Below, in pieces: positions 9,848 to 54,249 of a stretch of DNA of 64,000 nucleotides. Each line of letters begins with the position of its first letter. Within the stretch, counting starts at the first letter, position 1. This stretch comes from an uncultured Verrucomicrobiae bacterium (GTDB taxonomy: Bacteria; Verrucomicrobiota; Verrucomicrobiia; Limisphaerales; UBA11358): positions 10,765-74,764 of the forward strand of contig CAVWKA010000002.1 in NCBI GenBank assembly GCA_963755515.1. Reading direction: 5' to 3'. The notes beneath the pieces are model-generated. The model made no database searches, had not been told where the DNA came from, and saw only the letters and a list, made by a program, of their open reading frames with translations. The position numbers and the translations under genes were made by a program.

Positions 9848-10045
9848 CGTCGTCGCCTACGATTAAGCTGTCATCCTTTCAGGCGGCCGGGGCCGCATGA
9901 ACGTGGAACTCCAAACGGGGGGTTGGTTGGAAGGGGACAAAGTTTGGTGAAAATTAGAGACTCCTTACGTCGTATCCAACGAATAAGCTGTCATCCTTTC
10001 AGGCGGCCGGGGCCGCGTGAACGCGGGACTCCAAACGGGGGGTTT
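9848..10045 (+). repeat. two tandem REP-like units (approximately 78 bp each, 119-bp period) between the kinase and regulator genes
   Basis: 9848-9925 and 9967-10045 share ACGTCGT..ACGA.TAAGCTGTCATCCTTTCAGGCGGCCGGGGCCGC.TGAACG.GG.ACTCCAAACGGGGGGTT, with hairpins GCGGCC/GGCCGC and CCGCG-TGAA-CGCGG. A third copy plus the linker GGGGACAAAGTTTGGTGAAAATTAGAGACTCCTTACGTCGT recurs at 26844-26938. Confidence 0.85.
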
Positions 10046-10083: not shown

Positions 10084-10776
10084 ATGAAAGCGAAAATTCT
10101 TATCGTTGAAGATGACGCGCATATTTTGGCGGGTCTTGAGGAAGTATTGAAGAGCGACGGCTTCGAGGCGGTGTCCTGCAACCGGGGCGACCTGGCGCTG
10201 GAAGCCGCCGCGAAACACAAGCCCGCGCTGGTGTTGCTGGACGTGATGCTGCCCGGGGCCAGCGGCTACGATATTTGCAAACAACTGCGCGCAAAAAAGT
10301 TTACCGCGCCGATTCTGATGCTTACCGCCAAGGGACAGGAAATTGACAAAGTGGCGGGACTGGACCTCGGCGCGGACGATTATGTAACCAAGCCATTCGG
10401 CGTCCGCGAATTGCTCGCGCGCATTCACGCGCTGCTGCGGCGGGGGAATCCAGGGGGCGGCAAAGTGGATTCGGACAAGGCCTTCAAAATCGGGGAGGCG
10501 GCAATTGACCCGAAGACATTTCAGTTAAAGCGAGGGAAAACGATCGAAGAACTCACGGCGAGGGAAGTGAAGCTGCTTCAGATGTTTCATGTTCACGCGG
10601 GCGAGGTCTTGTCGCGAGACAAATTGCTGAACGAAGTCTGGGGTTACAATTATTACGGCACGACGCGAACGCTCGATCAGGCGATCGTGCAGCTCCGCAG
10701 GAAACTGGGCGACCACGGCGGGGAACCGAAATTGCTGTTAACCGTTCACAGCGTCGGCTACAAACTGGCGGGTTAA
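10084..10776 (+). CDS. OmpR/PhoB-family response regulator
   Basis: REC domain (ILIVEDD, LLDVMLPG, TAKG, DDYVTKPF) plus a winged helix (LTAREVKLLQMF, RTLDQAIVQLRRKL). Confidence 0.95.
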   Translation: MKAKILIVEDDAHILAGLEEVLKSDGFEAVSCNRGDLALEAAAKHKPALVLLDVMLPGASGYDICKQLRAKKFTAPILMLTAKGQEIDKVAGLDLGADDYVTKPFGVRELLARIHALLRRGNPGGGKVDSDKAFKIGEAAIDPKTFQLKRGKTIEELTAREVKLLQMFHVHAGEVLSRDKLLNEVWGYNYYGTTRTLDQAIVQLRRKLGDHGGEPKLLLTVHSVGYKLAG

Positions 10777-10894
10777 CCTGCTCTTTACGAACTTCATGAC
10801 GCGCGAATTTTGGGAGCCGATTCCACAAGTCCCAAGAAAACGTCCAAGAACTGCTTTTATCAACCGGTTATTTCTGGTAGAATTTGGCAACACA

Positions 10895-11620
10895 ATGGCA
10901 GGCGCAACCGAAGAAAAACGCGAGGTCACACTGCCGAAAGGCGTCAGTTTGCGACGCCTTGGCGAGGTGTTGCTGGACGCGTGGCTGGCCGATCCACGCC
11001 GATGGATGAACGCGGCGCCGGAATTGCGCGACAGCGCGGTGACGGGGCCGGCCGTGCCCGTGCCGCGGGACGCCATGGATTTGTTCCGCCTGCTCGCCGA
11101 ACGACAGGTTGACTATTTGCTTGTCGGCGGCCTGGCAATGCTCACCCATGTCAAAGGCCGAAATACCCGCGCCGTGGATTTGCTCATGTCCGCGGCCGCG
11201 CTCGATAGAATTCCCGAAATCGTTTTGGAAGACAAAAGCGAATTTTTAGCGCGCGGAAAATTCAAGAGTGTTCTGGTGGACGTGCTGCTGACGCGCAATC
11301 CATTGTTCAAAACGGTCACGGAAAAATTTTCCACAACGCATCCATTTGCGGAGTTGCAAATCCCGGCGGTGACGGTGGAAGGCATGATTGTGTTGAAACT
11401 GTATGCGATGCCGTCGCTGTTTCGTCAATTTGACATGGATCGCGCGGCTGTTTATGAGAATGATATCACCCTGCTGATGGCGCGGCATTCCCCGGCCATT
11501 GAACCGCTCCTCGCGCTGGCGACGAAGGACATGGAGCCGGGCGACCAGATGGAGTTGCAAAGAATCACCGCCGAATGCCGTGAGAGAGCCAGATTACTGC
11601 GACAGCGCGCGGGCCAATAA
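10895..11620 (+). CDS. hypothetical protein, possibly nucleotidyltransferase-fold
   Basis: VDYLLVGGLAMLTHVKGRNTRAVDLL and a following helical region loosely resemble MNT/AbiEii-type nucleotidyltransferase folds. Start chosen at in-frame ATG 10895; the track ORF begins at 10796. Confidence 0.45.
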   Translation: MAGATEEKREVTLPKGVSLRRLGEVLLDAWLADPRRWMNAAPELRDSAVTGPAVPVPRDAMDLFRLLAERQVDYLLVGGLAMLTHVKGRNTRAVDLLMSAAALDRIPEIVLEDKSEFLARGKFKSVLVDVLLTRNPLFKTVTEKFSTTHPFAELQIPAVTVEGMIVLKLYAMPSLFRQFDMDRAAVYENDITLLMARHSPAIEPLLALATKDMEPGDQMELQRITAECRERARLLRQRAGQ

Positions 11621-17125: not shown

Positions 17126-18013
17126 ATGGCGGAATCACTTGCTCATCGCTGGGGACAAATCATTGGAGACGTTTTTGAGATGTTTGTTCGCAACATTCTT
17201 ACGGACGTGGCGAAACAGCATGACCTCTACCTCGACTTCAAGCGCCCTCGCAAAGCCAGAGGCAGCCAAGGCAAGCTGACCTGGCAGGATGGCTACGGAA
17301 ACAAACATGATCTCGACTACGTTCTGGAGCGAGGTGGCGACGAAGAGAGGTTGGGTGTGCCCGCGGCGTTCATTGAGTCAGCATGGCGACGATACACCAA
17401 ACATTCGAAGAACAAGGTGCAAGAAATTGAAGCCGCTGTTATGCCAGTGGCACTGACATTTTCGAGGCATCAGCCGTTCCTTGGAGCAGTGCTGGCCGGC
17501 GAATTCACCAAGAATGCCCTCCAGCAACTGGAATCAAAAGGCTTTGCCGTTCTGCATGTATCCTACGAATCCATTCTAACGGCATTCAATCAACTTGGCA
17601 TTGATGCTTCGTCTGAGGATGGCGTAGGCGGCACGACCGAAGAACAATTCCACAACAAAATAGCAAAATGGCAATCACTTCCCCAGCCGCAGTCAACCAA
17701 CCGGCTCCTGGCCAAACTGCGCACTCTTCATGAACAGGAAATTCTCGATTTCAAGCAGTGCCTGGAAGCTGCCATCATGAGGCGAGTGAGTTCCGTCCGG
17801 CTGACTGTGTTACGTGGTCATTCGGTCGAATGTTCCGACATCGAAAGCGCCATTATCTATCTGGTTGAAGAAGAAAAATCCTACCGCATGCGGGAGGACG
17901 GTGAGCAGCGTGAAAGTTTTGAAATTCAAGTCCGATTCAATACGGGGGCGAAGATTGAGGCTACGTTCCCCAAACGCGCGGAATCAATTGCCTTTCTGCG
18001 CAGCTTCACATGA
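17126..18013 (+). CDS. putative type II restriction endonuclease (cognate of the adjacent methyltransferase)
   Basis: 295-aa ORF 10 nt after the MTase stop, with visibly lower GC than its neighbours. Possible PD-(D/E)xK elements (HDLDYVLER, FIESAWRRYTKHSKNK). The assignment rests mainly on context. Confidence 0.55.
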   Translation: MAESLAHRWGQIIGDVFEMFVRNILTDVAKQHDLYLDFKRPRKARGSQGKLTWQDGYGNKHDLDYVLERGGDEERLGVPAAFIESAWRRYTKHSKNKVQEIEAAVMPVALTFSRHQPFLGAVLAGEFTKNALQQLESKGFAVLHVSYESILTAFNQLGIDASSEDGVGGTTEEQFHNKIAKWQSLPQPQSTNRLLAKLRTLHEQEILDFKQCLEAAIMRRVSSVRLTVLRGHSVECSDIESAIIYLVEEEKSYRMREDGEQRESFEIQVRFNTGAKIEATFPKRAESIAFLRSFT

Positions 18014-18201
18014 AAACATTTTGCTCAGGCTCCGTCGTTTCCTTTTTTGGCACTCCTGCCCTCTACGGAATCGAAATTGCGAAAGGACAAGTCTAAATAT
18101 GGCCGAAAATAAACCACCTGAATTCAGTAAGAAAACGTTGTGGACATTGTGGCAATGAATCGCACGGTTGCGGGCGGAGAGGACGGTGACTATCAAGTGG
18201 A

Positions 18202-22944: not shown

Positions 22945-25323
22945 ATGAAAAATCGCGGTGCAACTGTATTTACGGCGCTGGCTTTGCTGGCGCTCTTAAC
23001 CATAAACTTTCAACCCTCAACCGCCTTCGCCCAGAACACGGTAGTCACCTATCAGGGCCGGGTGACGGACAATGGGACGAATTTTAGCGGCGCTGGACTG
23101 TTCCAATTCGCGCTGGTGACCAGCACGAACAACGACAGCCAGGCGACCGCCGCCGCCAGCCCTCCCAGCGGCGGCTACGTGACGGTCATCAACGTGATTT
23201 CCGGGGGTGCTGGATATACCAATACGCCTGCGGTAACCATCAGCGGCGGGGGCGCCAGTACGAACGCGACGGCGACGGCGACGGTGAGCGGCGGGGCGGT
23301 GACGGGCATCACGGTCACCGATCCTGGTTTCGGCTACACCAGCACGCCGACAGTGGTGATTGCGCCGCCTCCGCCGGACATTACCTACACGACGTATTGG
23401 AGCAATGACGGCACGGGCGTGAATGGGAGCGAACCCTCCGCAGCGGTGGGCGTGGGCGTGAGCAACGGGCTGTTCACCGTGGGATTGGGCGACACGACGC
23501 TGGCGAACATGACGGGGCTTCCCGCGGGGCTGTTCACGCAGCCGGGGCTACAACTGCAAATCTGGTTTAATGACGGCGTGAATGGTTTTGCGTTGCTCAA
23601 TCCGTTGCAGGACCTCACGGCGACGCCTTACACGGCTTTTGCCAACAGTGCCAGTAATTTGCTGGGAGTGTTACCGGCAGGCCAGTTAAACGGCACGGTG
23701 CCATTGTCGCAATTGCCGGCGGCAGTGGTGACGAACGATGAAACGTCCGTGACGCTGGACAATCTCACTCTCAACGGCGTAATTACGGCAAATGACGGCA
23801 TCAGTATCATCAGCGGCAGTCTAAATCTGCCTAATCCGGTCACGGTTAATTCCGGCTTTGGCAGCCTTTTTTATTCCGGCAGCGCGAATGGCAATTTTTT
23901 TGCCGGCCTCTTTGCCGGCAATCCGGCCAACGACAACGGCGGCGACAACGCGGCCTTTGGCGCTAATGCGCTTGCATCCAATACGACCGGCTCCGATAAC
24001 GCGGCCAGCGGCTTTGACGCGCTTTACTTCAATACGGGAGGCGATGCGAACACGGCGGATGGATGGAAAGCGCTTTATGCCAACACGAGCGGGGGTCTTA
24101 ACACGGCCAACGGCTCTCAGGCGCTTTTTTCCAATACGAACGGAAGCGGCAACACCGCCTCCGGATTTGATGCGCTTTACGCCAACACGAGCGGCGAAAA
24201 CAACACGGCAGATGGCGGTCAAGCGCTTTACGGTAACACGAGCGGGGGTCGTAACACGGCCAACGGCTTTCAGGCGCTTTTCTCCAATACGAACGGCACC
24301 GGCAACACGGCCTCCGGATTTGATGCGCTTTACGCCAACACGGGCGGCGAAAACAACACTGCGGATGGCTGTCAAGCGCTTAACGGTAACACGAGCGGGG
24401 GTCTTAACACGGCGAACGGCTTCCAGGCGCTTTTCTCCAATACGAACGGCACCGGCAACACGGCCTCCGGATTTGATGCGCTTTTCGCCAACACGAGCGG
24501 CGAAAACAACACTGCGGATGGCGGTCAAGCGCTTAACGGCAACACGAGCGGGGGTTTTAACACGGCGAACGGCTTCCAGGCGCTTTTCGCCAATACGAGC
24601 GGCGGTCTGAACACCGCCAACGGCTTCCAAGCGCTTGACGCAAACACAGGCGGCAGCCAAAACGTCGCAATAGGCAATGATGCGCTCACCAACAACACTT
24701 TGGGCAGCGGCAACATCGGTATTGGATTTCAGGCCGGGGAAGCTAATCCCAACGACGCCAATGACAACATTGACATCGGCAGTCCAGGCGGGACTTTTGA
24801 CGGCACAATTATCTCTCCCGGCGGCGTCGTCCGCATCGGAAGCGGCCAAAGTGCCACTTATCTGGCAGGGAATGTCTATGGCGAGAGTTTCAATCAAAGC
24901 AGTGACCGGAACGCCAAGGAAAATTTTGCCGGCATCAATCCGCAAACGGTGCTGGCCAAAGTGGCGGAAATGCCCATCACCGAATGGAATTACAAGATTG
25001 ATAGAAATGTCGAACACATCGGCCCGATGGCGCAGGATTTTCACGCGGCGTTCGGGTTGAACGGAGGCGATGACAAACATATTTCCACGGTGGATGAAGG
25101 CGGCGTGGCGCTGGCGGCGATACAGGGGCTTAATGAAAAGGTGGAAGTCAGAAGTCAGAAGTCAGAAGTCAGAATCCAGAATCTGGAAGTGGAGAACGCG
25201 AAACTCCAGGCGGAGGTTTCCGATTTGCGGTCGCAGCTTGGCGGGCTGCGAGAGGCCGTGGCCCGGCTCACGGACCCATCCGCCAGTCCGGTTGCCCTGA
25301 ATACGCGACAGGAGGACAAATGA
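22945..25323 (+). CDS. secreted fibre protein ('tail fibre domain' type) with C-terminal peptidase-S74 intramolecular chaperone domain, paralogue 1
   Basis: Signal peptide; [16 protein letters not shown]...FQFALVTS head; two GGxGYTxxPxVTISGGG pseudo-repeats; about 15 copies of a 17-aa repeat NTAxGxxALxxNTxGxx. The C-terminus SSDRNAKENF..ITEWNYK..HIGPMAQDFHAAFGL..STVDEGGVALAAIQGL is the endosialidase-chaperone signature, followed by a coiled coil. RBS AGGAGA lies 6 nt upstream. Confidence 0.85.
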   Translation: MKNRGATVFTALALLALLTINFQPSTAFAQNTVVTYQGRVTDNGTNFSGAGLFQFALVTSTNNDSQATAAASPPSGGYVTVINVISGGAGYTNTPAVTISGGGASTNATATATVSGGAVTGITVTDPGFGYTSTPTVVIAPPPPDITYTTYWSNDGTGVNGSEPSAAVGVGVSNGLFTVGLGDTTLANMTGLPAGLFTQPGLQLQIWFNDGVNGFALLNPLQDLTATPYTAFANSASNLLGVLPAGQLNGTVPLSQLPAAVVTNDETSVTLDNLTLNGVITANDGISIISGSLNLPNPVTVNSGFGSLFYSGSANGNFFAGLFAGNPANDNGGDNAAFGANALASNTTGSDNAASGFDALYFNTGGDANTADGWKALYANTSGGLNTANGSQALFSNTNGSGNTASGFDALYANTSGENNTADGGQALYGNTSGGRNTANGFQALFSNTNGTGNTASGFDALYANTGGENNTADGCQALNGNTSGGLNTANGFQALFSNTNGTGNTASGFDALFANTSGENNTADGGQALNGNTSGGFNTANGFQALFANTSGGLNTANGFQALDANTGGSQNVAIGNDALTNNTLGSGNIGIGFQAGEANPNDANDNIDIGSPGGTFDGTIISPGGVVRIGSGQSATYLAGNVYGESFNQSSDRNAKENFAGINPQTVLAKVAEMPITEWNYKIDRNVEHIGPMAQDFHAAFGLNGGDDKHISTVDEGGVALAAIQGLNEKVEVRSQKSEVRIQNLEVENAKLQAEVSDLRSQLGGLREAVARLTDPSASPVALNTRQEDK
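24151..24609 (+). repeat. 3 x 153-bp near-identical tandem super-repeat (each 3 x 51 bp) inside fibre gene 1
   Basis: Units start at 24151, 24304 and 24457 (AACAC(C/G)GCCTCCGGATTTGATGCGCTTT...). They encode NTASGFDALYANTSGENNTADGGQAL.GNTSGG.NTANGFQALFSNTNGTG. Confidence 0.85.
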
Positions 25324-25414
25324 AAACAGGAGGTAGCGTGACCGGGTAGCGACACGGACGCACCGGAAGATTGGATGGGGGGCGCTTGATTTGGGAACGC
25401 GAGTTTGCGCGGAT

Positions 25415-26113
25415 TCATGATTCGCCGCCGAAGCGCGGGCCGATTTGCATTTTTCCGACGACGACCGCGCCGTCTTCCACCATCAGATGCCGGGCATCCA
25501 CGTCGCCGAACAACCGGGCGGTGGACTTGAGGACGACCAAGTCCCGGGCGCGGAGATTGGCGGCAAGTTCCCCGGCGATTTCGGCCGACTGGACCTTGAG
25601 CGGGGCCGTCCAGCGAAAATGATTCTCCGACGGAATGATCAGATGGGAGGCAGTCAGGCTGCCTTTGATGTCGGCGGTCGAGTAAATGGTCAAGGAGCGT
25701 TCGACGGCGAGCTTGCCGTGGAATTTTCCCCGGATGACGGCGTCGCCGACGATGGTATCGGTATTAAAGACGCAGCCTTTGGGTTCGATGACAAAGACGC
25801 CCTTGGTCTTGAAATTTTTGGCAATGGCGGTGGTGATGCGATAATCGTGCAGGTCCACGTAGCGGCCGCATTGTTTGCACATGGTGGACTCGGCGCTGGC
25901 CGGCGCGTCGAGTTCCGCGCCGCACTCGAAGCAGGCAACCCGCCTGTGTTTCGGCGTCCGCTTGGGCGCAGTTGGCGGCGGATTGAGAACGTCCTGGACG
26001 CGGAGATGCTGCCCGCATTTTTTGCAGATGGTGGAGTAGGCCGAGCGCGGCTCCATTTGTTGGTGGCCGCAATGCGGACAGGCCACCATGACCTTGTCCT
26101 GTTTCTCCGGCAT
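25415..26113 (-). CDS. bactofilin-domain protein with two N-terminal zinc ribbons
   Basis: CPHCGHQQ..17..CKKCGQ and CFECGAEL..15..CKQCGR, then a bactofilin-type beta-helix with repeated (I/V)xGxhxG motifs (VGDAVIRGKFHGKLAVERSLTIYSTADIKGSLTASHLIIPS... ARLFGDVDARHLMVEDGAVVVGKM). Confidence 0.8.
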   Translation of the reverse strand: MPEKQDKVMVACPHCGHQQMEPRSAYSTICKKCGQHLRVQDVLNPPPTAPKRTPKHRRVACFECGAELDAPASAESTMCKQCGRYVDLHDYRITTAIAKNFKTKGVFVIEPKGCVFNTDTIVGDAVIRGKFHGKLAVERSLTIYSTADIKGSLTASHLIIPSENHFRWTAPLKVQSAEIAGELAANLRARDLVVLKSTARLFGDVDARHLMVEDGAVVVGKMQIGPRFGGES

Positions 26114-26143
26114 TCAATGTCTTTCGGCCCGCCGCGGCACGAT

Positions 26144-26560
26144 TCAACGTCCGGCCCTGCCCGATTCCGGAGATTTTGGGTTATCCGGCGGACGGACCAC
26201 GGGCGGCGTGGGTTGGACCTTGTTCGGATTGACTTCGGTTTTCCCGACAAAGGTGACGCCCTCTTCGACGACCAGTTTGGGGGCGCGGATGTCGCCAAAC
26301 AATTCGGCCTTGGACTTGATCTCAATTTTTTCCCTGGCATTGATGTTGCCGTTGACCTTGCCGCGGACGACGACCGACTGGGCGGCGATGTTGCCGTTGA
26401 TGACGGCGCTGTCACCGAGGGTCAAACTGCCGTCGGTTTGGATTTCGCCGTCGAGTTTGCCATCAAAGGTGAGTTCGCCGGAGAACTTGAGGTTGCCTTT
26501 GACTTCGACGTCGGAGTTCAACGCGTTTTTGGAGGCGCCTGGTGTGTTCGTCGTGTCCAT
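26144..26560 (-). CDS. bactofilin (polymer-forming cytoskeletal protein)
   Basis: Start trimmed to ATG 26560 (RBS AAGGAGAAAAG upstream). 138 aa: VEVKGNLKFSGELTFDGKLDGEIQTDGSLTLGDSAVINGNIAAQSVVVRGKVNGNINAREKIEIKSKAELFGDIRAPKLVVEEGVTFVGK, with a Pro-rich tail. Confidence 0.85.
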   Translation of the reverse strand: MDTTNTPGASKNALNSDVEVKGNLKFSGELTFDGKLDGEIQTDGSLTLGDSAVINGNIAAQSVVVRGKVNGNINAREKIEIKSKAELFGDIRAPKLVVEEGVTFVGKTEVNPNKVQPTPPVVRPPDNPKSPESGRAGR

Positions 26561-26843
26561 CTTTTCTCCTTTTTTGTAATACTTAATGCAGGAGGAGAGA
26601 GGTGTCAAAAGTTTATTTTGCGGGCGGGGAAAAAGGGGGAAGCGTTTACGCGAATTGGCGCGAAGGGACACGAATGGAAAGGGGAAAGGCACATTCTCAC
26701 GCAACGGTCGCAGCCGCCGTCGCCCAGGCTCCCGTCTCCGCCAAGGCTACGCCGGGCAGGATGGCGGGCCAAGAAGGCCGCAAAGAAATGCAGATGAACG
26801 CAGATGAAAAAAGCTGAAAGCTGACCAGTCTTAGCCGCGCTTC

Positions 26844-26938
26844 GGGGACAAAGTTTGGTGAAAATTAGAGACTCCTTACGTCGTCTCCTACGATTAAGGA
26901 GGCCCGGACCGCGTGAACGCGGAACTACAAACGGGGGG
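26844..26938 (+). repeat. third copy of the REP-like unit seen between the kinase and regulator genes
   Basis: GGGGACAAAGTTTGGTGAAAATTAGAGACTCCTTACGTCGTCTCCTACGATTAAGGAGGCCCGGACCGCGTGAACGCGGAACTACAAACGGGGGGG. Compare 9933-10045. Confidence 0.85.
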
Positions 26939-27188
26939 GCGTTTTCGACGCGGCCAAGTGACAAAGTTGGCACAAGGACTTGAGAACAAGGGCGGCGTAG
27001 CGTCGAGCTCCGCGGCTGAGGGTGCGCGGGATTTTCCTGTCCCGCCTTCCAAAAACCGGCGACTGGCCGCCGTCGCGCCGAAGCGGCGCTTTGGCGCGCC
27101 GCGGAAGAGTCGCCGGAACCCGCCGGCTGGAAAGCCCGCGCCAGGTCTTTGTCACTGGCCCCGCCCAAGGGTTTTAGTCCGTATTATA

Positions 27189-27217
27189 TTGACAAGAAGC
27201 TGAGCTTTTTATATACT
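27189..27217 (+). promoter_or_regulatory. near-consensus sigma-70 type promoter upstream of fibre gene 2
   Basis: TTGACA (27189-27194), a 17-nt spacer, then TATACT (27212-27217), 88 nt upstream of ATG 27305. Confidence 0.55.
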
Positions 27218-27304
27218 GCCGCCGCTTCGGAAGGGCTGTTGGCGTGTCTTTGCGCCCTTTCCGAACGCACATCAAGGAACAACAAAGAGCAGAAAGGTTA
27301 AGTT

Positions 27305-29975
27305 ATGAAATCGCTGTCGCGTCGTATTGTATGCAGTGCGCTGGCCTGGCTGGCGCTTTTGACCCTCAACCTTCAACTCACGATTGCCCATGCGCAGGGG
27401 ACGGTGTTCACGTACCAGGGACGGGTGACGGACAATGGCACGAACTTTAACGGCACGGGGCAGTTCCAGTTTGCGCTGGTGACCAGCACGAACGGCCAGA
27501 CGGCGACGGCCACAGCGAACATGGGCGGGGTTTCGCCGACTAAATTCGTCAGCAGTTGCAGTATTGTCAATGGCGGGAGCGGTTACACGACGGCGCCGGC
27601 AGTGAGTTTTTCCGGCGGTGGCGGCACGGGCGCGACGGCCACGGCGAATCTCACCGGGGGCGTTGTCACGAGTATCACCATTGACACGCCTGGTTCAAGC
27701 TACAGCAGCGCGCCGGCGGTGACGATTGCGCCGCCGCCGCCGGTTTACACGACGTTTTGGAGCAACGACGGCACGAGCGTGGCCGGGAGCGAGCCATCGG
27801 CGGCCGTGGGGGTGGGGGTGAGCGGCGGCCTCTTCACCGTGGGATTGGGCGACACGACGCTGCCGGGCATGTCATCTCCGCTTCCGGCCTCCCTGTTCGC
27901 CTCGCAATCGGATCCTGGAGCTGATGATGTGGTTCAACGACGGCGTGAATGGTTTTGCGTTGCTCAATCCGTTGCAGGACCTCACGGCGACGCCTTACAC
28001 GGCTTTTGCCAACAGTGCCAGTAATTTGCTGGGAGTGTTACCGGCAGGCCAGTTAAACGGCACGGTGCCATTGTCGCAATTGCCGGCGGCAGTGGTGACG
28101 AACGATGAAACGTCCGTGACGCTGGACAATCTCACTCTCAACGGCGTAATTACGGCAAATGACGGCATCAGTATCATCAGCGGCAGTCTAAATCTGCCTA
28201 ATCCGGTCACGGTTAATTCCGGCTTTGGCAGCCTTTTTTATTCCGGCAGCGCGAATGGCAATTTTTTTGCCGGCCTCTTTGCCGGCAATCCGGCCAACGA
28301 CAACGGCGGCGACAACGCGGCCTTTGGTGCTAATGCGCTTGCATCCAATACGACCGGCTACCAAAATACGGCCAATGGCTTTGGCGCGCTTTACTTCCAC
28401 ACGGACGGCTACCAAAACGCGGCCAATGGCTATAAGGCGCTTTTTTTCAACACCAGCGGTCTCCAAAACACGGCCAATGGAGCGTTTGCGCTTTTTTCCA
28501 ACACCAACGGTTACGGAAACACGGCCGATGGCTATCAATCGCTTTATGACAACACGAGCGGCAACTTAAACACAGCCGTCGGCGCTTATGCGCTTGAAAA
28601 CAATACAACCGGCGGCGGAAACACGGCCAATGGCGAGGGTGCGCTTTTTTCAAACACCAACGGCTACGACAACACGGCCAATGGCTTCGATGCACTTGCA
28701 GACAACACGAGTGGCCACGAAAACACAGCCAATGGCGTTTATGCACTAGCAGACAACACAAGCGGCTACCAAAATACGGCCAATGGCTTTGGCGCGCTTT
28801 ACTTCAACACGGACGGCTACCAAAACGCGGCCAATGGCTATAAGGCGCTTTTTTACAACACCAGCGGTCTCCAAAACACGGCCAATGGAGCGTTTGCGCT
28901 CATTGACAACACGAGCGGCTTCCAAAACACGGCCAACGGCGAGAATGCGCTTTTTTCCAACACCAACGGTTACGGAAACACGGCCGATGGCGTTGCCGCG
29001 CTTTACGGCAACACGAGTGGCGAAAATAACACGGCCGATGGCGTTGCCGCGCTTTACGGCAACACGAGTGGCGACGGAAACACGGCCAATGGCGAGAATG
29101 CGCTTTACTCCAACACGAGCGGCAACTACAACACCGCGGTCGGCTTTGGGGCGTTAGAGGATCTTGGCTTCGGCGCCGCCGGCGGCAACAATAACATTGC
29201 GGTGGGCTTCGTTGCCGGCGGCGCGTTCACAGGGAATGAAAGCTCCAACATTGACATTGGCAATGTTGGAATCGCCGGCGAAAGCGGCGTCATCCGCATC
29301 GGCACCGAAGGGATTCAGAACTCCACTTTCCTGGTCGGCAAGGTGGGCATCAACGAAGCCAGTCCGTCAGGCGCGTTGCACATCACGGGTCCCACCAATG
29401 CGCCGCCGACCGGCGTGGGCAGCGGTGACAACGGGCTGGTGCTAGGCACGACCGGCACGACGGGCTACAAATGGATTCAGAGTTACGGCGGACCGCTGGT
29501 GTTGAACGGCCCCGGCAACGATGTCGGCATCGGCAACGAATCCCCCGTCTATCCGCTGGAGATGGGCAGCGGGGCCTATTGCAGCGCCGCAGGCGTTTGG
29601 ACGAGTGTTTCCGACCGCAATGCCAAGGAAAATTTTAGGGCCATCCAACCCGCCGAAGTGTTGGCCAAAGTCGCCGCGCTCCCGATTACGCAATGGCAAT
29701 ACAAAGCAGAGCCGACGGGAACCGAACACATCGGCCCCATGGCGCAGGATTTTCACGCGGCGTTTGGCTTGAACGGCGCGGATGACAAACACATTTCCAC
29801 GGTGGATGAAGGGGGCGTGGCGCTGGCGGCGATACAGGGGTTGAACCAGAAAGTGGAGGAGCAATTGAAAGAAAAGGACGCCGAGATTGCGGATTTGAAA
29901 CAGGAAAACGATTCGCTGGCCGAACGCCTGAACGAACTGGAACAAACGGTTAAAAAACTCGCGGAAGGAAATTAA
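27305..29975 (+). pseudogene. fibre protein with peptidase-S74 chaperone domain, paralogue 2, interrupted by a +1 frameshift near 27905-27925
   Basis: ORF 27305..28024 carries the signal peptide and head ([17 protein letters not shown]..). ORF 27924..29975 carries the body ([20 protein letters not shown].., about 16 x 17-aa repeats) and the S74 end (VSDRNAKENF..ITQWQYK..HIGPMAQDFHAAFGL..). Comparison with paralogue 1 (..LFTQPGLQLQIWFNDG..) places the frame break between LFASQS and [11 protein letters not shown]. Confidence 0.75.
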
Positions 29976-41430: not shown

Positions 41431-41523
41431 CAGATTCCATACTCTCAAGCGTAATCCGGGGGCAAAAGGGATGTCGAATTTTTTCAGATACTTTTTGCCG
41501 GCCAATTGCGCTTAATCATTTGG

Positions 41524-43722
41524 ATGAATGAAGGGGACCACAACGTGAAGCCAGACAACCAACGCGAGGCGGCGCTCTTTCAGGCCGCTGCCCAACTCAC
41601 GGGTTCCGCCCGCGGGGCGTTTCTGGACAGCGCCTGTCGCGACGACGCGGCCCTGCGTCAGCGGCTGGAAGCCCTGCTGGGCGCGCATGAGCAAGCTGGG
41701 GGTGTCCTGGCCGAGCCTGCGCCCGCGGCCAAGGGGACGATGAAAGTTGAGTTGGCGGTTGTTCCAGACGAATCCATCGGTCAGAAGATCGGGCGCTACA
41801 AAGTCCTTCAGAAAATCGGGGAGGGCGGTTGCGGGGCGGTCTATATGGCGGAGCAACAGGAGCCGGTGCGCCGCCGCGTGGCGCTTAAAGTGATCAAGCT
41901 GGGCATGGACACGAAGGCGGTGATCGCCCGATTCGAGGCGGAGCGGCAGGCATTGGCATTGATGGACCATCCGAACATTGCGAAGGTGCTCGATGCCGGC
42001 TCGACCGAGAGCGGTCGGCCATTTTTCGTGATGGAACTGGTGCGCGGGATCAAGCTCACCGAGTATTGCGATCAGAACCAACTGGATACGCGCACGCGCC
42101 TGGAATTGTTCATCCAGATTTGCCAGGCCATTCAGCACGCGCACCAGAAAGGCATCATCCATCGGGACATCAAGCCGTCGAACATTCTGGTGACGATGCA
42201 CGACGGGGTGGCGGTGCCCAAGGTGATTGATTTTGGGATAGCCAAGGCGACGACGGATCAACGGCTGACAGACAAGACGCTGTTCACGGCCTATGAACAG
42301 TTCATCGGCACACCGGCATACATGAGTCCGGAGCAGGCGGAGATGAGCGGGCTGGACGTGGACACGCGCAGCGACATCTACAGCCTGGGCGTGCTGCTTT
42401 ACGAGTTGCTGACGGGGAAGACGCCATTCGATCCGAAAGAACTGATGGAGTCCGGACTGGATGCAATGCGAAAGACGATTCGGGAGAAGGACCCAGTTCG
42501 GCCCAGCACCAAGCTGGCGACATTAGAGGGCGAGGAACGCACGACCACGGCGAAGCGCCGTTCGGTGGAGATCTCAAAACTTGCGAAGTTGTTGTCGGGG
42601 GATTTGGACTGGATTGTAATGAAATGTCTGGAGAAGGACCGGACGCGGCGTTACGACACGGCCAACGGGTTGGCCGCCGACCTCAGGCGGCATCTCAACA
42701 ACGAGCCGGTGGTTGCGTGCCCGCCGAGCGCCGCCTACAAGTTTCGAAAAGCCCTTCGGCGGAACAAGCTCGTGTTTACCGCGGCGGCGGCGGTGACGGC
42801 GGCGCTGGTGTTGGGGATCATTGCCAGCACCTGGCAGTCGGCGCGGGCAATTCACGCCAAACGGGAGGCTGAAGCCGCGGAAGCACAAGCCATTCAGGCG
42901 CAAGCCAACGAAACCAAACAGCGGCTGCTCGCTGAGCAGGAAGCCGCGCAGGCCGAACAGGCCAAAGAAATTGCCGACCATGAATCCATTGCCGCGCGGC
43001 GGACGGCGGGCGAGTCCGATGCCCGTTACCTGCTCCAGCAACGGCTTCTTCCCGCGGCGCTCGCCAAAGCGACTGAAGCATACAAACTCGGAGGCGAATG
43101 GGAGGATGGCCTGCTCATTGACGATATTGCCCGTGCCGCCCGCCAAACCTGGGTGCTGGCCGCCCGCGTGCCGTTGAGCGAACCGGCAAAGATGGCTTGC
43201 GTGGCTCGGATCAACGAGGAGGAGTGCGTGGTTTTGTGCGGAGCCGGCGGCCTTCGCGTCGTGGACGCCCGGAATGGCGCCACTCTTGGCGCGGCACCTT
43301 TTGCGGGACAAGTCCAGTATTTGTTTCCGGGTTCAAGTTCCAATTCCGTGGTTGCCGTTTCTGATTCCTCGGTTTCGGTTCTTTCTTTGCCGTCGCTCGC
43401 GGTTACAGCAACAAAGTCGGTCCCAAGTTCGATCAGCTTTGCGACGGCCACAGGCAACAGCCTCTTGCTGTTGCTCAACAGCCACGAGGTATGCCTTTAT
43501 GATCTTTCCAGCCTGTCGAATGTCGCTTCCTTCAACTGGGACCAGAATCCGGGCACGAAAGGATTTCAACTGCCGCGTCACGGCTGCGTTTCCCCCGACG
43601 GCAAACTCGTGCTGCTTCATGGCGGGAGCTGGGTGAATCCGGTGATTTTCTGGGACCGGCGAAGCGACCCGGCGAGCCTTCACGGTACTGAAGATACACC
43701 TGCAGGAGTTTCAATTTATTGA
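41524..43722 (+). CDS. Ser/Thr protein kinase, membrane-anchored, paralogue 1 (N-terminal domain + kinase + TM + coiled coil + start of beta-propeller); reading frame breaks near 43650-43700
   Basis: [37 protein letters not shown] and [34 protein letters not shown]. Start taken at ATG 41524; the track ORF begins at TTG 41506. Confidence 0.85.
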   Translation: MNEGDHNVKPDNQREAALFQAAAQLTGSARGAFLDSACRDDAALRQRLEALLGAHEQAGGVLAEPAPAAKGTMKVELAVVPDESIGQKIGRYKVLQKIGEGGCGAVYMAEQQEPVRRRVALKVIKLGMDTKAVIARFEAERQALALMDHPNIAKVLDAGSTESGRPFFVMELVRGIKLTEYCDQNQLDTRTRLELFIQICQAIQHAHQKGIIHRDIKPSNILVTMHDGVAVPKVIDFGIAKATTDQRLTDKTLFTAYEQFIGTPAYMSPEQAEMSGLDVDTRSDIYSLGVLLYELLTGKTPFDPKELMESGLDAMRKTIREKDPVRPSTKLATLEGEERTTTAKRRSVEISKLAKLLSGDLDWIVMKCLEKDRTRRYDTANGLAADLRRHLNNEPVVACPPSAAYKFRKALRRNKLVFTAAAAVTAALVLGIIASTWQSARAIHAKREAEAAEAQAIQAQANETKQRLLAEQEAAQAEQAKEIADHESIAARRTAGESDARYLLQQRLLPAALAKATEAYKLGGEWEDGLLIDDIARAARQTWVLAARVPLSEPAKMACVARINEEECVVLCGAGGLRVVDARNGATLGAAPFAGQVQYLFPGSSSNSVVAVSDSSVSVLSLPSLAVTATKSVPSSISFATATGNSLLLLLNSHEVCLYDLSSLSNVASFNWDQNPGTKGFQLPRHGCVSPDGKLVLLHGGSWVNPVIFWDRRSDPASLHGTEDTPAGVSIY

Positions 43723-45540
43723 CACCGATCATTTTGCCACCTGGGAATTGGTCGGCGGAGGAGAGACGGGAATGCCCGACAAGGTTAATATTTACGATGC
43801 CACAGCACGCTCCGGTCGTGGCCAGCTCGCAATCGGTTCCCAATGATGACATCAAGGGACACATCGGGTTTCAAGTCTGGAGTTCCAAGGATTGGCACTA
43901 TGACACAGATTTTCCCATCGTCGGGTGCATTGGGCCGTCCGGCCTGGGATCTTAAAGGCGTGGATATCACCGGGGAACAAGGCGGGAGATTTCACCTCAG
44001 TGATCGGTATGCGAATTTGTTGCCGACGGAAGCAAATATCCCGGCATTTCTTGCCGCGCGACATGGACAACGGCGTGCTGGCACTTCAATCCCCCAGCGA
44101 TCTTTTGATTTTCCAGTTAAGTTGGCGTTATTGGGATGGCTTCATCCGGGATTATTGCGCCACGGCGTGCTCCAACGGCTTGGTGTACGTTGACATTCAT
44201 TTGCATCCGAGCGCCACGCCTGGTGTTCCTTCCCTTCAATCCCCGCGAAAAGCGCGGCGCGTTTCAGCCTGCAATGGCCGGCCGACAGCAAATGGATGCC
44301 CTGGGCCATCGCCGCCACGCCGGACGCTTCCACTGTGGCCATCATCGCGGTCAGGAGACTGATTCCGGCGATACGATCAATGCGCGCTACGGTCGTGTCC
44401 GCGCTTTGATTTACCATCCCGGCGGTCTGGCGGACGCGCCTGCGGCGTGGCCTATCCGGAACGCTTTTCAGGTGGATGAGCCAGCCTTTAACGGTTTTAC
44501 ACCGCGTTTTCTGGTCATGGACCCGACGCCCAGCGCTTTGCTATATTGGGATTCCACGACCACCGTGACCCGCTATGATACCCGCTGATGGCAGGCCGCT
44601 TGGCTCACTTGAATTGGGCCTGGTCAGCGCGCATTCGCGTGATGGCCGCCGCGTCGGCACAGTTTCTCCGGCGGGCAGGATTCGTGTCTATGACGTCTCG
44701 ACCGGCGACACGATTCTTGACCAGCAGGGCAAACCGGCTTCCGGACTGTGCTTGTCCCCGGACGGCTCGCGCCTGGTGGCGTCCCAAGATGGCAGGATTA
44801 ACATTTACGACGAATCGTCGGGCCAGGTGCTCTCTTCGCTTTCTTCCCCTTTGGTGCCTTTGGCTTACCCGTCTCAGGGAAACCGCTTCCTTGCCTTTCA
44901 GCCCGATGAAACCGGTGATCGGAGGCTCCGTCGTTTTGGCGGATACGGCGAGATGCGCAGCGTCGCCGCCGTCCTCAACCGCGCGGGCACCAGTTTTACG
45001 CCGGCATTCTTCAGCGATTCCGGCGATCAAATTGCCGTCGTTGGCGACCGCTGGACGCCCAAGATCATCCGTTCTCTCCGCCCGGATGAACTCCCGGCGG
45101 TGCTGAATACCGGCCTTCCCGAAACCACTGAGATCCCGGCCCTTGAGCCTGCCAACATCGTCACCACCGCTCCCGCCGCGCCGCTCCTGAATCCATAGAT
45201 GTGCTGGGCGCGGACAACATTTCGGCGCTGCAATCGCACCTCGGCGACCTGGTGGCCGTTCAAGGGCGGGTCCGAAATTGTCAAGCTGGTCAAGCCGGAT
45301 CGCCGCAAACATTTACTTTGAGGGCGCGCGGGACCCCAACAGTCCAAGTGTGGGTGCCGTGGGGCCCATTTCCGAAATTCGAAGCGATCTTCGGCAGAGA
45401 CCTCGATGCCGCGCTGGATGGCCGCACCATAAGGGCGACCGGACGTCTTTCCGTTTACCAGGGGGAGCATCGAGGTGACGCTTGACGACCCGGCGAAATT
45501 TGTGATTGTCTCTCCGAGCGGCCAGTCCAATTAACTTCGC
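43646..45540 (+). pseudogene. frameshift-fragmented continuation of kinase 1 (beta-propeller/WD-like repeats), plus a fragmented approximately 110-aa C-terminal module
   Basis: Protein-like stretches alternate between frames: FTVLKIHLQEFQFIDTDHFATWELVGGGETGMPDKVNIYDATARSG (frame 2 from about 43680), ORFs 43843.., 43925.., 44136.., and 44575..45198 (RIRVYDVSTGDTILD..SPDGSRLVASQDGRINIYDESSGQV). The stretch 45201-45540 is readable only by switching frames (GDLVAVQGRVRN / HLYFEGARDPNSP / VWVPWGPFPKFEAIFGRDLDAALDGRTIRATGRLSVYQG / IEVTLDDPAKFVIVS). Confidence 0.5.
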
Positions 45541-45549
45541 CAAGAGACC

Positions 45550-48500
45550 ATGAATCAGAACCGTGAAGAGCTTTTATTTGGCCTGGCACTGACAAAATCT
45601 GCCAGCCAGCGGCTTGAGTTTCTCGACCGCGAATGCGGCGAAGACAGGGCGTTGCGCACCCGCCTCGAAGCCCTGCTCGCGGCGCATGAGCAAACCGAAG
45701 GCGTGCTGGCCGAACCCGCGCCGGCGGCCAAGGCGACGATGAAGATCGAATTTGCCGATGTTCCCGACGAAGCCGTCGGCCAGAAGATCGGGCGTTACAA
45801 GATGCTGGAGAAAATCGGCGAAGGCGGCTGCGGCGTGGTCTATGTGGCCGAGCAGACGGAGCCGGTCCGCCGCCGCGTGGCGCTCAAGGTCATCAAGCTG
45901 GGCATGGACACCAAGCAGGTCGTCGCCCGGTTCGAGGCCGAGCGGCAGGCGCTGGCGATGATGGACCATCCCAACATCGCCAAGGTGCTCGATGCCGGCG
46001 CGACGGAAACGGGCCGGCCTTACTTCGTCATGGAACTGGTGCGCGGCATCCGCATCACCGATTACTGCGACCAGAACAATCTGTCCACCAGGGAACGGCT
46101 GGATCTGTTCATCCAGGTCTGCCAGGCCATCCAGCACGCGCACCAGAAGGGCATCATCCACCGCGACATCAAGCCGTCGAACATCCTGGTGACGCTGCAC
46201 GACGGCGTGCCGGTGCCCAAGGTGATTGATTTCGGCATCGCCAAGGCGACCGCAGGCGCGGCTGACCGACAAGACGGTTTACACGCAGTTGCAGCAGTTC
46301 ATCGGCACGCCGGCCTACATGAGTCCGGAACAGGCGGAGATGAGCGGGCTGGACATTGATACGCGCAGCGACATTTACAGCCTGGGCGTGCTGCTTTACG
46401 AATTGCTGACGGGCAGCACGCCGTTCGATGCGCAAGGAACTGATGTCGCAGGGCATTGACGCGATGCGGCAAGACCATCCGGGAGAAGGAGCCGGTGCGG
46501 CCCAGCACGCAAGCTGGCGACGCTCAAGGGCGAGGAGCTGACGACCACGGCCAAGCGCCGTTCGGTCGGACACGTCGAAGCTGATGCACGCAGCTCAAGG
46601 GCGACCTGGACTGGATCGTGATGAAGTGCCTGGAGAAGGACCGCACGCGGCGTTACGAGACGGCCAACGGTCTGGCGGCGGACATCAAGCGGCATCTGAA
46701 CAACGAGCCGGTGGTCGCCCGTCCGCCGAGCACAGCTTATCGGTTTCAGAAAACCGTTTCGCCGGAACAAAGTTGGGCTTCGCCGCACGGCGGCCGTCAT
46801 TGTCGTCGCCTTGCTGCTCGGCATCATTGTCAGCACCTGGCAGGCGGTGCGCGCCACGCATCGCCAAGCGGGAAGCCGTGGCGGCGCAAGCGCGGCGAAG
46901 CAGTGCAACGACAAACAGGCTGACGCCAATGCAAAAGGAAGCTGACGCCGGCCAGACAAGGCCGAAGGCCAGCGCAGGAACTCGCCGCCCGCCAGCGCGC
47001 CTACGCCTCGGACATGAACGTCGCCATGCAGGCGCTGGCCGGAAGCAATCTCGGCCGCGCGCTGGATTTGCTGAACCGCCAGCGGCCCCAGCCGGGCCAG
47101 AAAGATTTGCGCGGCTGGGAATGGCGTTATCTCTGGCAGCAAACCCGCAGCGACGCCTTGTTCACCCTTTGCCAGGAATCCAGCGAAATCGAATCGCTGG
47201 CGGCTTCAGCCGATGGCCACTGGCTGGCGATCGGCGTGGACCACAATGGCGGGTGTTTGTGTGGGACCTGCGGACCCGGCAGGAGGTTGGCCCACCTCGC
47301 ACCGGACGAAGATGAGGTGCGCGCCGCCTTCTCACCGGCTGAATCCTCTGCTGGCCTTCACCAGCGTCAGCGTTCCGGCTTCGGGCAAGGAGCAAAACAC
47401 TTTGCGGCTCTGGAATGCCGCCACGCGACAGATGGTTGGCGAATTCCCACTGGATCGCGAGTGCGCGGGGCTGGCGTTCGCCAAGGATGGGCGGACGCTG
47501 GTGACTTCCACCGGCCGGAGGACGGCATCACTCTCTGGGCGCATGCCCGAAGGAACCAAGCTGGCCAGTTATCCATGCGACGATGAATTAGATGTTGATC
47601 CCGGGAACCGGTTTTGCCGCGACGCCGGACTTGAGTCTGGCGGCGTATATTACGGGCTGACAACGTCGCAGCAGGTTCGCGTCATGGATCTGCACGACGG
47701 CAAGGAACTTTGGAACGCGGCTGGCAGCCAAGGAATTTATCACCGCCCTGGCGTTTTCGCCGGATGGAAAAACGCTGGCGTCCGCCGCCGGATTCGGCGA
47801 GTCGGACATCCGCTTGTGGGACGTGGCCACCGGCAAGGAAATCGGGCGGCTGGAAGGCCACAAATCCTGGGTCGGCTCTTTGGTGTTCTGGCCGGATGGC
47901 AAAAAACTGGCCTCCAGCCAGCGCCGACCAGACGATTCGCATTTGGGATGTGGCCAGTCGCAAGTGCCTGGACGTGCTGCGCGGTCATCGTCAGGAGGTG
48001 TGGCGGCTGGCGTTGCTGCCGGATGACAAAACGCTGGTCAGCGGCGGCAAGGACGGCACGGTTTGCTTTTGGGACACGTCCGTCACGCATCCGCATCAGT
48101 CTCGCATCACCATGCCGGAGAAAGTGGTTGACTGGTGCTTCCCGCCGGAGAACCAATCAGTTCTCACCCTGGACCTGCAGGGCCAAGTGGCGCGAAGGTC
48201 TGGACCTGCCTTTCGACAGCAGGAACCGCTGCTGGACGTCGGCACCAATTTCATTTCCGATTCTTGGAACAATGTCTTCTCGCAGCGACGGACGCTTCCT
48301 GGCGTTCGGCTCGACCAACGGCGTCATCCAGGTTTGGGACGTATCCCGCCAGGTTCTGTGGCGTCAGTGGACGAATACAACGGGTGCTCGTAGCGCCCCT
48401 CGCATTTCTCGCAAACGGAAACAAGCTGGCAGTCTGGTCCAGGGCCGGCAATGTCGAATCACGAATGGGATCTTATAACCGGGCGGGAATTGCAATCGTG

Positions 48501-49039
48501 GCAGGCCGTTTCGGAAAGTTATCAAGAACAGATTCCATCGATCGTGACTTTCCCAGACGAAGAGCATTACGTGGCATTCGGGTTTAATGGCGCGGTCCAA
48601 TTCAAGGATGCGGCCAACGATGAGGTAATGGAAACCAACCTGGATTATCTGGAAGGCATTGCCGCGGCGGTTTCTCCCGATGGCAAACTCTTCGCCGTAG
48701 CCAGTTATTTGGGTTATGCGCGAGTGTGGGACACCGCGACCTGGCACGAGGGAGAGACGCTGCGCGGCTTTCTCAACGGCGTTAACTCGGTGGTTTTTTC
48801 ACCGGACAGCCAACGACTCGCCATCGGCGGCAGCAATCCCGACGATGCGGTGAAACTCTGGGACGTGAACAGTTGGCAGGACGTATTCACCCTGGAAGGC
48901 GCAGGCTCTCTTTTTGTGGATCTCCGCTTTTTCACCCGACGGCAACGTCATCGGCGCCCTGAGCAGTGACGGCATCTTGAACCTCTGGCGCGCGCCGTCC
49001 TGGGCGGAGATCCACGCGGCGGAGGCGCAACGACCATGA
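45550..49039 (+). pseudogene. Ser/Thr protein kinase with WD40 repeats, paralogue 2, broken by at least a dozen frameshifts
   Basis: The kinase domain is intact to about 46255 ([30 protein letters not shown]). Then [23 protein letters not shown] is in another frame, and [11 protein letters not shown] / KTIREKEPVRPST / KLATLKGEELTTTAKRRS / [21 protein letters not shown] each need a frame switch. WD40 units ([71 protein letters not shown]) are scattered over ORFs 47014.., 47213.., 47710.. and 48451... The last readable stretch SPDGNVIGALSSDGILNLWRAPSWAEIHAAEAQRP ends at stop 49037-49039. Confidence 0.8.
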
Positions 49040-49983: not shown

Positions 49984-50074
49984 GCTCTGGTCTCCATGAC
50001 CGCTGCCAAGGCGACGATGATGATCAAGCAAAATAAACATTGCTGTTGCGACTGATCTCGGCGATAAGATTTCA

Positions 50075-53462: not shown

Positions 53463-54249
53463 GCGGGGACCGTCTTTTTGAGCGCACTTTCCACGGCGGT
53501 GCGGTAAATAACGTCCACGACGTTCCGAAGATATTGTTCGTCGGCGACGCCGTCGGTGGCTTCCGGCGGGAAATCCACTTTGGCGCGGAAATGCCGGCCA
53601 GGTCACCGAACAATTCCACGCGCGCCACCGGGTCAAATTCTCGCGTCGCAACAGCGCCTGCAAAGCGATGTCCGCTTCCGCCGGTGAAACATTCTGCCGC
53701 AGGCGCGCGACGAGGTGCGGAAATTGCCGGAGCGAATTGTATTTGCCGGCGAGCAATTGGTCCAGATCCGGCTCGGAGATCTGCGGGGTGCGGATGACAA
53801 CGGTGTTGGCGGCGATGTCGCCCAGGCGCTGGCATTTTGAGTTGAGCCAGCAGGTCAGGCCGCCGACAAAATAAAACAGCCGGCAATGCATCCACGAACC
53901 GCAGCAGGTTGCGCACGACGATTTGGTTGAATTGCAGCCGCATTCCTTCCGCGTCCACCACGCGCAGGCGGAACAGCCTCTTGCCGATGGTCTGGCCGCG
54001 CCAGCTCCATTCAAAAAAAATCCCGTAGCCGATGCCGACGACAAACCAGCCGATGACCAAAAAGCGCAGGGCAAATTCAAAGCTGAGCACTTCGAGCAGA
54101 CTGCATGAGCGATTCCCAGAACCATCAGGCAAGACCAGGATGCAAAGCTGGTCAATGAACCACGCGAAAAACCGGGTCACCGGCCCGGCCAGCAATTGCG
54201 AAAACACGATGCCTTCCGGCGTACGGATGAACAGGGTGCTGGTTTTCAT
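53459..54249 (-). pseudogene. RDD-family membrane protein, frameshifted at least 3 times
   Basis: FIRTPEGIVFSQLLAGPVTRFFAWFIDQ...WRGQTIGKRLFRLRVVDAEGMRLQFNQIVVRNLLRFVDALP in one frame; GGLTCWLNSKCQRLGDIAANTVVIRTPQISEPDLDQLLAGKYNSLRQFPHLVARLRQNVSPAEADIALQALLRRE in a second; HFRAKVDFPPEATDGVADEQYLRNVVDVIYRTAVESALKKTVPA in a third. Confidence 0.6.

Follow-up and report, generated by a model that had tools for sequence, protein, structure and literature searches.

Ectopic gene conversion between bacterial paralogues is exemplified by tufA and tufB of Salmonella and E. coli. Non-reciprocal exchange is also the basis of silent-cassette antigenic variation, as in pilE/pilS of Neisseria, vlsE of Borrelia, and msp2 of Anaplasma, where the silent cassettes have no promoter and no 5' end and are present in multiple copies. 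Domain-level exchange between genes for surface virulence factors of Porphyromonas gingivalis has been reported (PMC5266723). Among eukaryotes, ectopic recombination or gene conversion among cell-surface paralogues has been reported for the yeast FLO genes (PMC3512402) and for the surface antigens of Plasmodium falciparum (PMC10919680). The locus described here, in a 64-kb stretch of DNA from an uncultured member of the Verrucomicrobiota (the window), contains two paralogous fibre genes that share an identical tract, for which recent ectopic gene conversion is strongly supported by sequence comparison. The second gene also carries a frame break close to the tract.

Both genes are predicted to be chromosomal paralogues encoding Sec-exported fibre proteins (Table 1). 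Paralogue 1 begins with a Sec-type signal peptide, followed by a head of ~180 aa, a neck, repeats of 17 residues (51 nt), and, at the C terminus, a Peptidase_S74 chaperone domain; paralogue 2 is built alike, but is divided between two open reading frames (ORFs). The Peptidase_S74 family (PF13884) matches paralogue 1 at aa 653 to 703 (E = 2.3e-10, 41.1 bits) and paralogue 2 with 46.9 bits, both exceeding the Pfam gathering cutoff of 22 bits. In both proteins the domain starts with SDRNAKENF, which corresponds to the conserved Ser...Lys motif of predicted autoproteolysis, a motif known at the start of Peptidase_S74 domains from the endosialidase literature. Each repeat array also has a higher-order period, which is 153 nt for paralogue 1 (86% identity) and 408 nt for paralogue 2 (78% identity). 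The fibre genes are therefore prone to recombination.

The family is very large, with >6,000 homologues, named “tail fiber domain-containing protein” and mostly from Verrucomicrobiota metagenome-assembled genomes (MAGs). Protein searches with paralogue 1 and with repaired paralogue 2 returned no orthologue with >57% identity over a long alignment (closest, 45 to 57%), and no close outgroup for either paralogue was found, the best homologues being 45 to 57% identical. The head and the 17-aa repeats matched no Pfam family, an NCBIfam search of the fibre proteins gave nothing relevant, searches of PDB sequences, Rfam, and NCBIfam added nothing, and no publication on these fibre proteins emerged from a search of the literature. 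Some sources call relatives trimeric autotransporter adhesins. This identity was ruled out because the Pfam search detected neither a YadA-type anchor nor Hep_Hag or HIM repeats, its only matches being PF13884 and weak coiled-coil matches below the cutoff.

The upstream neighbours are a GH78 rhamnosidase and a GH63-like enzyme, and an opposite-strand pair of bactofilin genes separates the paralogues. A 450-aa ORF at 25445..26797 (+), which has a high codon score and was first taken for a gene, is a shadow of these two minus-strand genes. No phage genes were found nearby, the fibre genes lying in a chromosomal context, and no third fibre gene copy was found within the 64-kb window.

Table 1. 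Features of the fibre gene locus, in window coordinates
Feature	Coordinates	Strand	Basis or remark
Paralogue 1, intact fibre gene (792 aa)	22945..25323	+	ORF, translation, Pfam, homologues
Identical tract, copy 1	23572..23960	+	Reaches 23992 if one mismatch is allowed; encodes the neck, beginning directly behind WFND and ending at the first 17-aa repeat
51-nt (17-aa) repeat array, paralogue 1	23938..24696	+	Repeat analysis
Peptidase_S74 intramolecular chaperone domain, paralogue 1	24901..25053	+	PF13884 match; begins at SDRNAK
Zinc-ribbon and bactofilin gene, between the fibre genes	25415..26113	-	Translation; L042-L045 orthologue carries PF04519
Bactofilin gene (138 aa)	26144..26560	-	Exact product retrieved same-species contigs
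Promoter-like site (sigma-70 type, TTGACA-17-TATACT) preceding paralogue 2	27189..27217	+	11/12; consensus match only
Head ORF, paralogue 2 (signal peptide and head)	27305..28024	+	Out of frame past ~27914
Extra-nucleotide site	27908..27915	+	40-junction linker alignment; compared with L042, one C of CC 27914-27915
Body ORF, paralogue 2 (neck, repeats, S74 domain 29610-29765, coiled-coil tail)	27924..29975	+	
Identical tract, copy 2	27939..28327	+	Continues to 28359 with one mismatch; unchanged in L042
51-nt repeat array, paralogue 2	28254..29165	+	

As the initial annotation had reported, the two copies of the tract are identical base for base over 389 nt, at an offset of 4,367 nt. Identity runs on, interrupted by a single C/T difference at 23961/28328, until the next mismatch at 23993/28360, giving 421 nt in total, and the rest of the paralogues is diverged, with flanks only 66 to 76% identical. 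The nearest mismatches on the 5' side, at 23568/27935 and 23571/27938, are both T/C and both synonymous. The 5' edge falls in WFNDGVNGF, the most conserved motif of the family, the 3' edge lies within the first repeat unit, and there are no indel differences between the copies. The same 71-aa peptide is indeed encoded by antisense ORFs 23628..23843 and 27995..28210, which had been put forward as independent confirmation of the identity, but this follows trivially from the identity of the tract. At flank identities of 0.70 to 0.76, the probability of 389 successive matches is 10^-46 to 10^-60, and chance is therefore excluded as the origin of the tract.

Synonymous divergence (Nei-Gojobori, codon alignment) sets the tract apart from the rest of both genes: dS is 0.83 in the head, 1.03 in the repeats, and 0.93 in the C-terminal domain but 0.029 in the tract, whose 143 codons contain three synonymous and no non-synonymous differences. 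In 30-codon sliding windows, pS is 0.4 to 0.6 on either side but 0.0 in a series of seven consecutive windows. Constraint on the protein cannot explain this pattern, because synonymous sites are identical and the neck (141 residues) is hardly alignable in relatives, where only its first 30 to 75 residues can be aligned, and barely so past ~50. In the flanks, dN/dS is 0.18 to 0.34, indicating that paralogue 2 has long been functional.

A second assembly provides an independent view of paralogue 2. Exact-product look-up of the 138-aa bactofilin retrieved four contigs from other samples (L042 to L045); the sister strain is present in ERZ25039501, SRR30413548, ERR11593882, and SRR27973317. Of the four, L042 (ENA ERZ25039501 contig_81574; 3,407 nt, from another metagenome) covers window positions 25339 to 28746 and thus includes, for paralogue 2, the promoter, head, linker, entire tract, and some of the repeats. 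Its identity to the window is 99.74% over 3,407 nt, with six substitutions and three indels, and the tract and its 5' edge are unchanged (C at 27935 and 27938). By its contig naming, L042 seems to be a long-read assembly, with possible errors of its own. No match was obtained when paralogue 1, the ComM-like gene, the RDD gene, or the second bactofilin in its 232-aa form was looked up exactly, and scans of genome and metagenome contigs found no same-species locus, the best relatives having 59 to 72% amino acid identity.

Perfect identity might also arise during assembly or polishing, if a repeat were collapsed or duplicated or if the copies were homogenised by cross-mapped reads. This assembly is demonstrably imperfect, as described below, and the paralogue 1 copy of the tract is known from this window alone. 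The two copies nevertheless lie on a single contig, 4,367 nt apart, and each has unique flanks of its own; L042 independently assembles the paralogue 2 copy without any difference, in a stretch that starts in the unique bactofilin genes, crosses the tract, and ends in the repeats; and cross-mapping requires prior high similarity, whereas the flanks are 66 to 76% identical. We therefore regard an artefactual tract as highly improbable. Its perfect identity could be slightly exaggerated if cross-mapped paralogous reads were used in polishing.

The step in dS and the presence of the same tract in a second assembly strongly support the earlier proposal of a recent conversion between diverged paralogues. 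The following sequence of events is envisaged. An old duplication of the fibre gene (dS, ~0.8 to 1.0) would have been followed by purifying selection on both copies. More recently, homologous recombination would have copied ~390 to 420 nt of the neck, non-reciprocally, from one gene into the other, with end points placed tentatively in the family-wide WFNDG motif and the first repeat unit. The split of paralogue 2 is a separate matter: in this assembly it stems from an additional C at 27914/27915, at a distance of 24 nt from the 5' edge of the tract. We assign a probability of roughly 0.6 to this account as a whole, that is, to a conversion tract accompanied by an unrelated extra C that is most likely a consensus or sequencing error and otherwise a young, private null mutation. 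Related MAG loci often have tandem fibre paralogues bearing patches of raised identity, of 658 nt at 96% (L007), 766 nt at 82.5% (L031), and 154 nt at 90% (L004).

The anatomy of the frame break was described accurately in the initial annotation: the distance between CTGTTC (27893-27898) and TGGTT (27930-27934) is spanned by 31 nt in paralogue 2 and 27 nt in paralogue 1, and the head and body ORFs of paralogue 2 overlap in different frames. Alignment of 40 head-neck junctions from related loci, with the linker LF-xQ[PS]xLQL[QR]IWFNDG, locates the break more closely. Head and neck are contiguous and in one frame wherever both parts align in the related loci, and all 40 junctions are in frame. 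The head frame of paralogue 2 contains the conserved Gln codon (CAA, 27905-27907), whereas the conserved Leu codon (CTG, 27915-27917) belongs to the body frame. These codons are separated by seven nucleotides (TCGGATC) rather than the six expected; exactly one extra nucleotide must therefore lie within the site. Removal of one base converts 27305-29975 into a single 889-aa ORF with no stops and restores the family linker. The sequence reads GGATCCTGG in the window, GGATCTGG without the extra C at 27914/27915, and GGAT-CTGG, exactly one C fewer than in the window, in L042. Paralogue 2 of L042 is accordingly an unbroken ORF of at least 480 aa, ended only by the end of the contig, with exactly the predicted linker residues.

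Because L042 has the same tract and the same edge but no extra C, the frame break is, as far as these assemblies indicate, private to the present one and not linked to the conversion. Both strains have the tract, but only one has the frameshift; the events are therefore independent, and the frameshift is either younger than the tract or unreal. In exact look-ups, neither of the frameshifted products (239 aa and 683 aa) was on record in any public assembly.

Three explanations had been offered for the break, the first being a recombination scar that silenced copy 2, so that it now serves copy 1 only as a donor cassette. Its role would then resemble that of pilS. The break is only 24 nt from the edge of the tract, and the recurrence of tandem fibre paralogues with raised-identity patches in related MAGs would suit such a system. 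Those 24 nt are, however, specific to paralogue 2, in a linker that is 56% identical between the paralogues; the extra base lies outside the tract, and L042 shows that the tract and its edge can exist without the frameshift. Silent donors are promoterless and truncated at the 5' end, whereas paralogue 2 retains the near-consensus promoter-like site noted in the initial annotation, an ATG start codon, and a signal peptide, and the flank dN/dS values denote a long functional history. Linked silencing of this type thus appears extremely improbable.

The second explanation is a reversible on/off switch, for which the mechanism could be slipped-strand phase variation or, alternatively, programmed +1 ribosomal frameshifting. 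One strain does have C where the other has CC, and conversion by paralogue 1 extending 25 nt further upstream should also restore the frame. The sequence of the site, TCGGATCCTGG, nevertheless offers little to such mechanisms: its longest run is 2 nt, the CC itself, with no longer homopolymer and no short tandem repeat. The repeat tract that marks phase-variable contingency loci is thus missing from the frameshift site, and the conserved shift and recoding signal of programmed frameshifting are likewise missing: no slippery, stall, or recoding motif was seen at the site, an Rfam search found no element at the break, and the 40 related junctions and L042 need no frameshift. We give a switch hardly any credence. 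A combined scheme, in which a real CC allele silences paralogue 2 but the gene is preserved and its neck is kept identical by recurrent conversion, would constitute a primitive on/off and domain-shuffling fibre system, with the frame repaired whenever conversion reached ~25 nt further upstream; this too is very improbable.

The third explanation, a sequencing indel, has the best support, along with the closely related possibility of a mutation private to this strain, and the quality of the assembly bears directly on both. A census of frameshifts was based on the continuity of Pfam domains and on related contigs, since a codon usage model was too noisy across the window. Comparison of window positions 43310 to 49027 with the syntenic contig L041 (ERZ27256528 k141_1142115; 88 to 93% nucleotide identity) revealed an “indel storm” at 43676-48917, comprising 58 indels, nearly all of 1 nt and outside homopolymers, of which 44 are insertions and 14 are deletions in the window. 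The storm hits two adjacent Ser/Thr-kinase genes, and the adjacent gene at 50030-51600 has no indels relative to L041 in 1,571 nt. In a frameshift-aware alignment with the protein P0121, the kinase-WD40 gene has 24 frame changes and a single stop, and its amino acid identity is 83% once stitched. The storm sets in mid-gene, the first 2,170 nt of the gene at 41506 being clean, and leaves an 800-nt clean island. Third codon positions account for 0.58 to 0.59 of substitutions inside the storm, compared with 0.60 to 0.76 outside.

Decay of two pseudogenes was considered as the source of the storm and rejected: onset is mid-gene, a clean island remains, third-position bias is kept, and insertions outnumber deletions (44 versus 14), whereas the decay of pseudogenes is usually deletion biased. 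The storm is apparently indel-only noise, of the kind typical of a poorly polished long-read consensus. Elsewhere in the window, another +1 shift, near 54505, divides a SpoIIM-family gene (-) into ORFs that match positions 33 to 127 and then 132 to 162 of the Pfam model. Indel errors that fragment genes have been reported in long-read assemblies (PMC12007338).

The indel storm and the split SpoIIM gene favour an assembly or consensus insertion as the origin of the extra C, which we consider probable. The extra C is of the same kind as the storm events, a single inserted base outside a long homopolymer; L042 lacks exactly one C at that position; and all 40 relatives are in frame. Against this, the fibre region is otherwise clean of indels: the 2.4 kb of paralogue 1 and the 2.05-kb body of paralogue 2 are intact, and no indel distinguishes the tract copies. 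Moreover, genuine 1-nt indel polymorphism exists in the population, as at 25415, where a T is present in the Logan short-read contig L043 and missing in L044 and L042. L042 might itself be in error, although exact restoration of the frame would then be a large coincidence, and it is very unlikely that its intact state results from a deletion that fell on the one base restoring the family-consistent frame.

The cleanness of the fibre region implies a low local error rate, so that a real mutation is quite possible. The extra C would then be a very recent, strain-private frameshift, paralogue 2 a young pseudogene, and the tract unrelated to either. In addition to the absence of other indels and the polymorphism at 25415, this alternative may draw on the frequent loss of surface-protein paralogues and on the fact that both coding substitutions in paralogue 2 between the window and L042 are non-synonymous. 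It is weakened by the insertion-biased 1-nt noise elsewhere in the assembly, which the extra C resembles, by the restriction of the frameshifted products to this assembly, and by paralogue 2 having no further decay. On balance, a real frameshift is realistic but unlikely. If it did occur, the cell would produce and secrete a head fragment of 239 aa ending in 36 out-of-frame residues, and a signal-less body might restart at ATG 27924/27927 behind GGAG. Taken together, all readings besides an assembly indel and a real private mutation are improbable.

The preferred account, conversion of the neck with an unrelated extra C, makes the tract an ordinary case of ectopic conversion between repeat-rich surface paralogues, and only the host and the gene family are new. 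Recent conversion is clearly illustrated here for the secreted fibre proteins of soil and freshwater Verrucomicrobiota, a family that is very large and uncharacterised and that would recombine at two levels, by unequal exchange within repeat arrays and by conversion between loci. The apparent silenced cassette or switch vanishes once a second assembly is compared. Given the dense single-base indel noise on this contig, its apparent pseudogenes need sequence reads before they are interpreted.

Several known systems share features with this locus. Phage tailspike and tail fibre proteins of the endosialidase type (PF13884) have a homologous C-terminal domain starting from the S-D-x-x-x-K motif and a predicted repetitive fibre body, but the fibre pair is chromosomal, with Sec signal peptides and with glycosidase and bactofilin neighbours. 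The frame break recalls the long-read indel errors of the study cited above (PMC12007338), where single-base indels give apparent frameshifts and split genes; the indels of the window cluster in part of the contig and are missing from a related contig named in short-read (megahit) style, but the fibre break is isolated in an otherwise clean stretch. With silent-cassette systems the pair would share non-reciprocal transfer of a segment between possibly unexpressed and expressed copies of a surface gene. Copy 2 is, however, complete save for one base and intact in a sister strain, and what moved is the neck, a conserved segment rather than a variable one. The FLO genes and P. falciparum antigens are likewise mosaic, surface-exposed, repeat-containing paralogues with a converted segment within deep divergence; they are eukaryotic, and mosaics there are tied to functional diversification. 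In comparison with described conversions between bacterial paralogues, the host here is an uncultured member of the Verrucomicrobiota, the family is uncharacterised, and one event is seen. As in those conversions, a sharp, near-identical tract that includes synonymous sites lies within diverged paralogues of the same genome, in genes for repeat-rich surface proteins, and each copy occupies its own context, that of paralogue 2 being confirmed by L042.

The 51-nt repeat arrays of both fibre genes have a higher-order periodicity, with a period of 153 nt (86% identity) in the array of the intact gene, paralogue 1 (23947-24654), and of 408 nt (78% identity) in the array of paralogue 2 (28310-29137), the gene split by one extra base. 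This periodicity points to recent unequal exchange inside the arrays. In addition, synonymous divergence (pS), calculated in sliding windows along the alignment of the two paralogues, has two smaller dips, at 25033-25122 / 29745-29834 and 23332-23415 / 27698-27781, where values are 0.28 and 0.19, respectively, compared to ∼0.5. These lesser dips may mark the eroded remains of older conversion tracts, or they may reflect codon-level constraint. When paralogue 2 of the window is compared with L042, an ENA assembly contig from another strain, only two coding substitutions are seen, at 28398 and 28549; both are non-synonymous (H/N and D/G) and are located inside repeat units.

Two bactofilin genes are located between the fibre genes (see the table), and a long plus-strand open reading frame (ORF) at 25445-26797 (450 aa) was rejected as a gene, being a shadow ORF of these minus-strand genes. 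At position 25415, just after a bactofilin stop codon, the window and the Logan contig L043 both have a T, which L042 and L044, a contig from a further sample, lack. This is a real single-base polymorphism among strains. The same region contains one copy of an intergenic repeat of ∼100 nt (79% identity), at 26844-26938, upstream of the paralogue 2 promoter region; the other copy (9933-10042) precedes a gene whose start is at 10084, and a partial copy occupies 9878-9922. An imperfect palindrome of 61 nt is found at 27056-27116.

Coordinates and strands of the bactofilin and kinase genes
Feature	Position	Strand
Zinc-ribbon-bactofilin gene	25415-26113	-
Bactofilin gene	26144-26560	-
Ser/Thr-kinase gene, large, indel-shredded	41506-~45530	+
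Ser/Thr-kinase gene, large, indel-shredded	45550-~49060	+

One of the two broken Ser/Thr-kinase genes has a kinase-TM-WD40 architecture. Compared with the syntenic contig L041, the window carries 58 indels, mostly of 1 nt, between 43676 and 48917 (44 insertions and 14 deletions relative to L041), with the result that the ORF at 41506..43722 represents only a truncated version of a ∼1,340-aa gene. No indels relative to the same contig occur within 45466-46256 or in the gene that follows (50030-51600). The concentration of indels looks like that of a long-read consensus left unpolished, not like the decay of pseudogenes. A +1 frame change also splits a SpoIIM-family gene (54249-55293, minus strand) near 54500-54510, spreading its Pfam PF01944 match over two ORFs (model positions 33-127, then 132-162); GGGG and CCCC runs adjoin the break.

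A related Verrucomicrobiota metagenome-assembled genome (JBAOIL010000030.1) contains five fibre-type genes within 19 kb, and two of these, 6.8 kb apart, have in common a tract of 658 nt (10571-11228 and 17371-18028 of that locus) spanning the C-terminal domain and downstream sequence. The two copies of this tract are 96% identical, and exchange between fibre paralogues is therefore not limited to the window.
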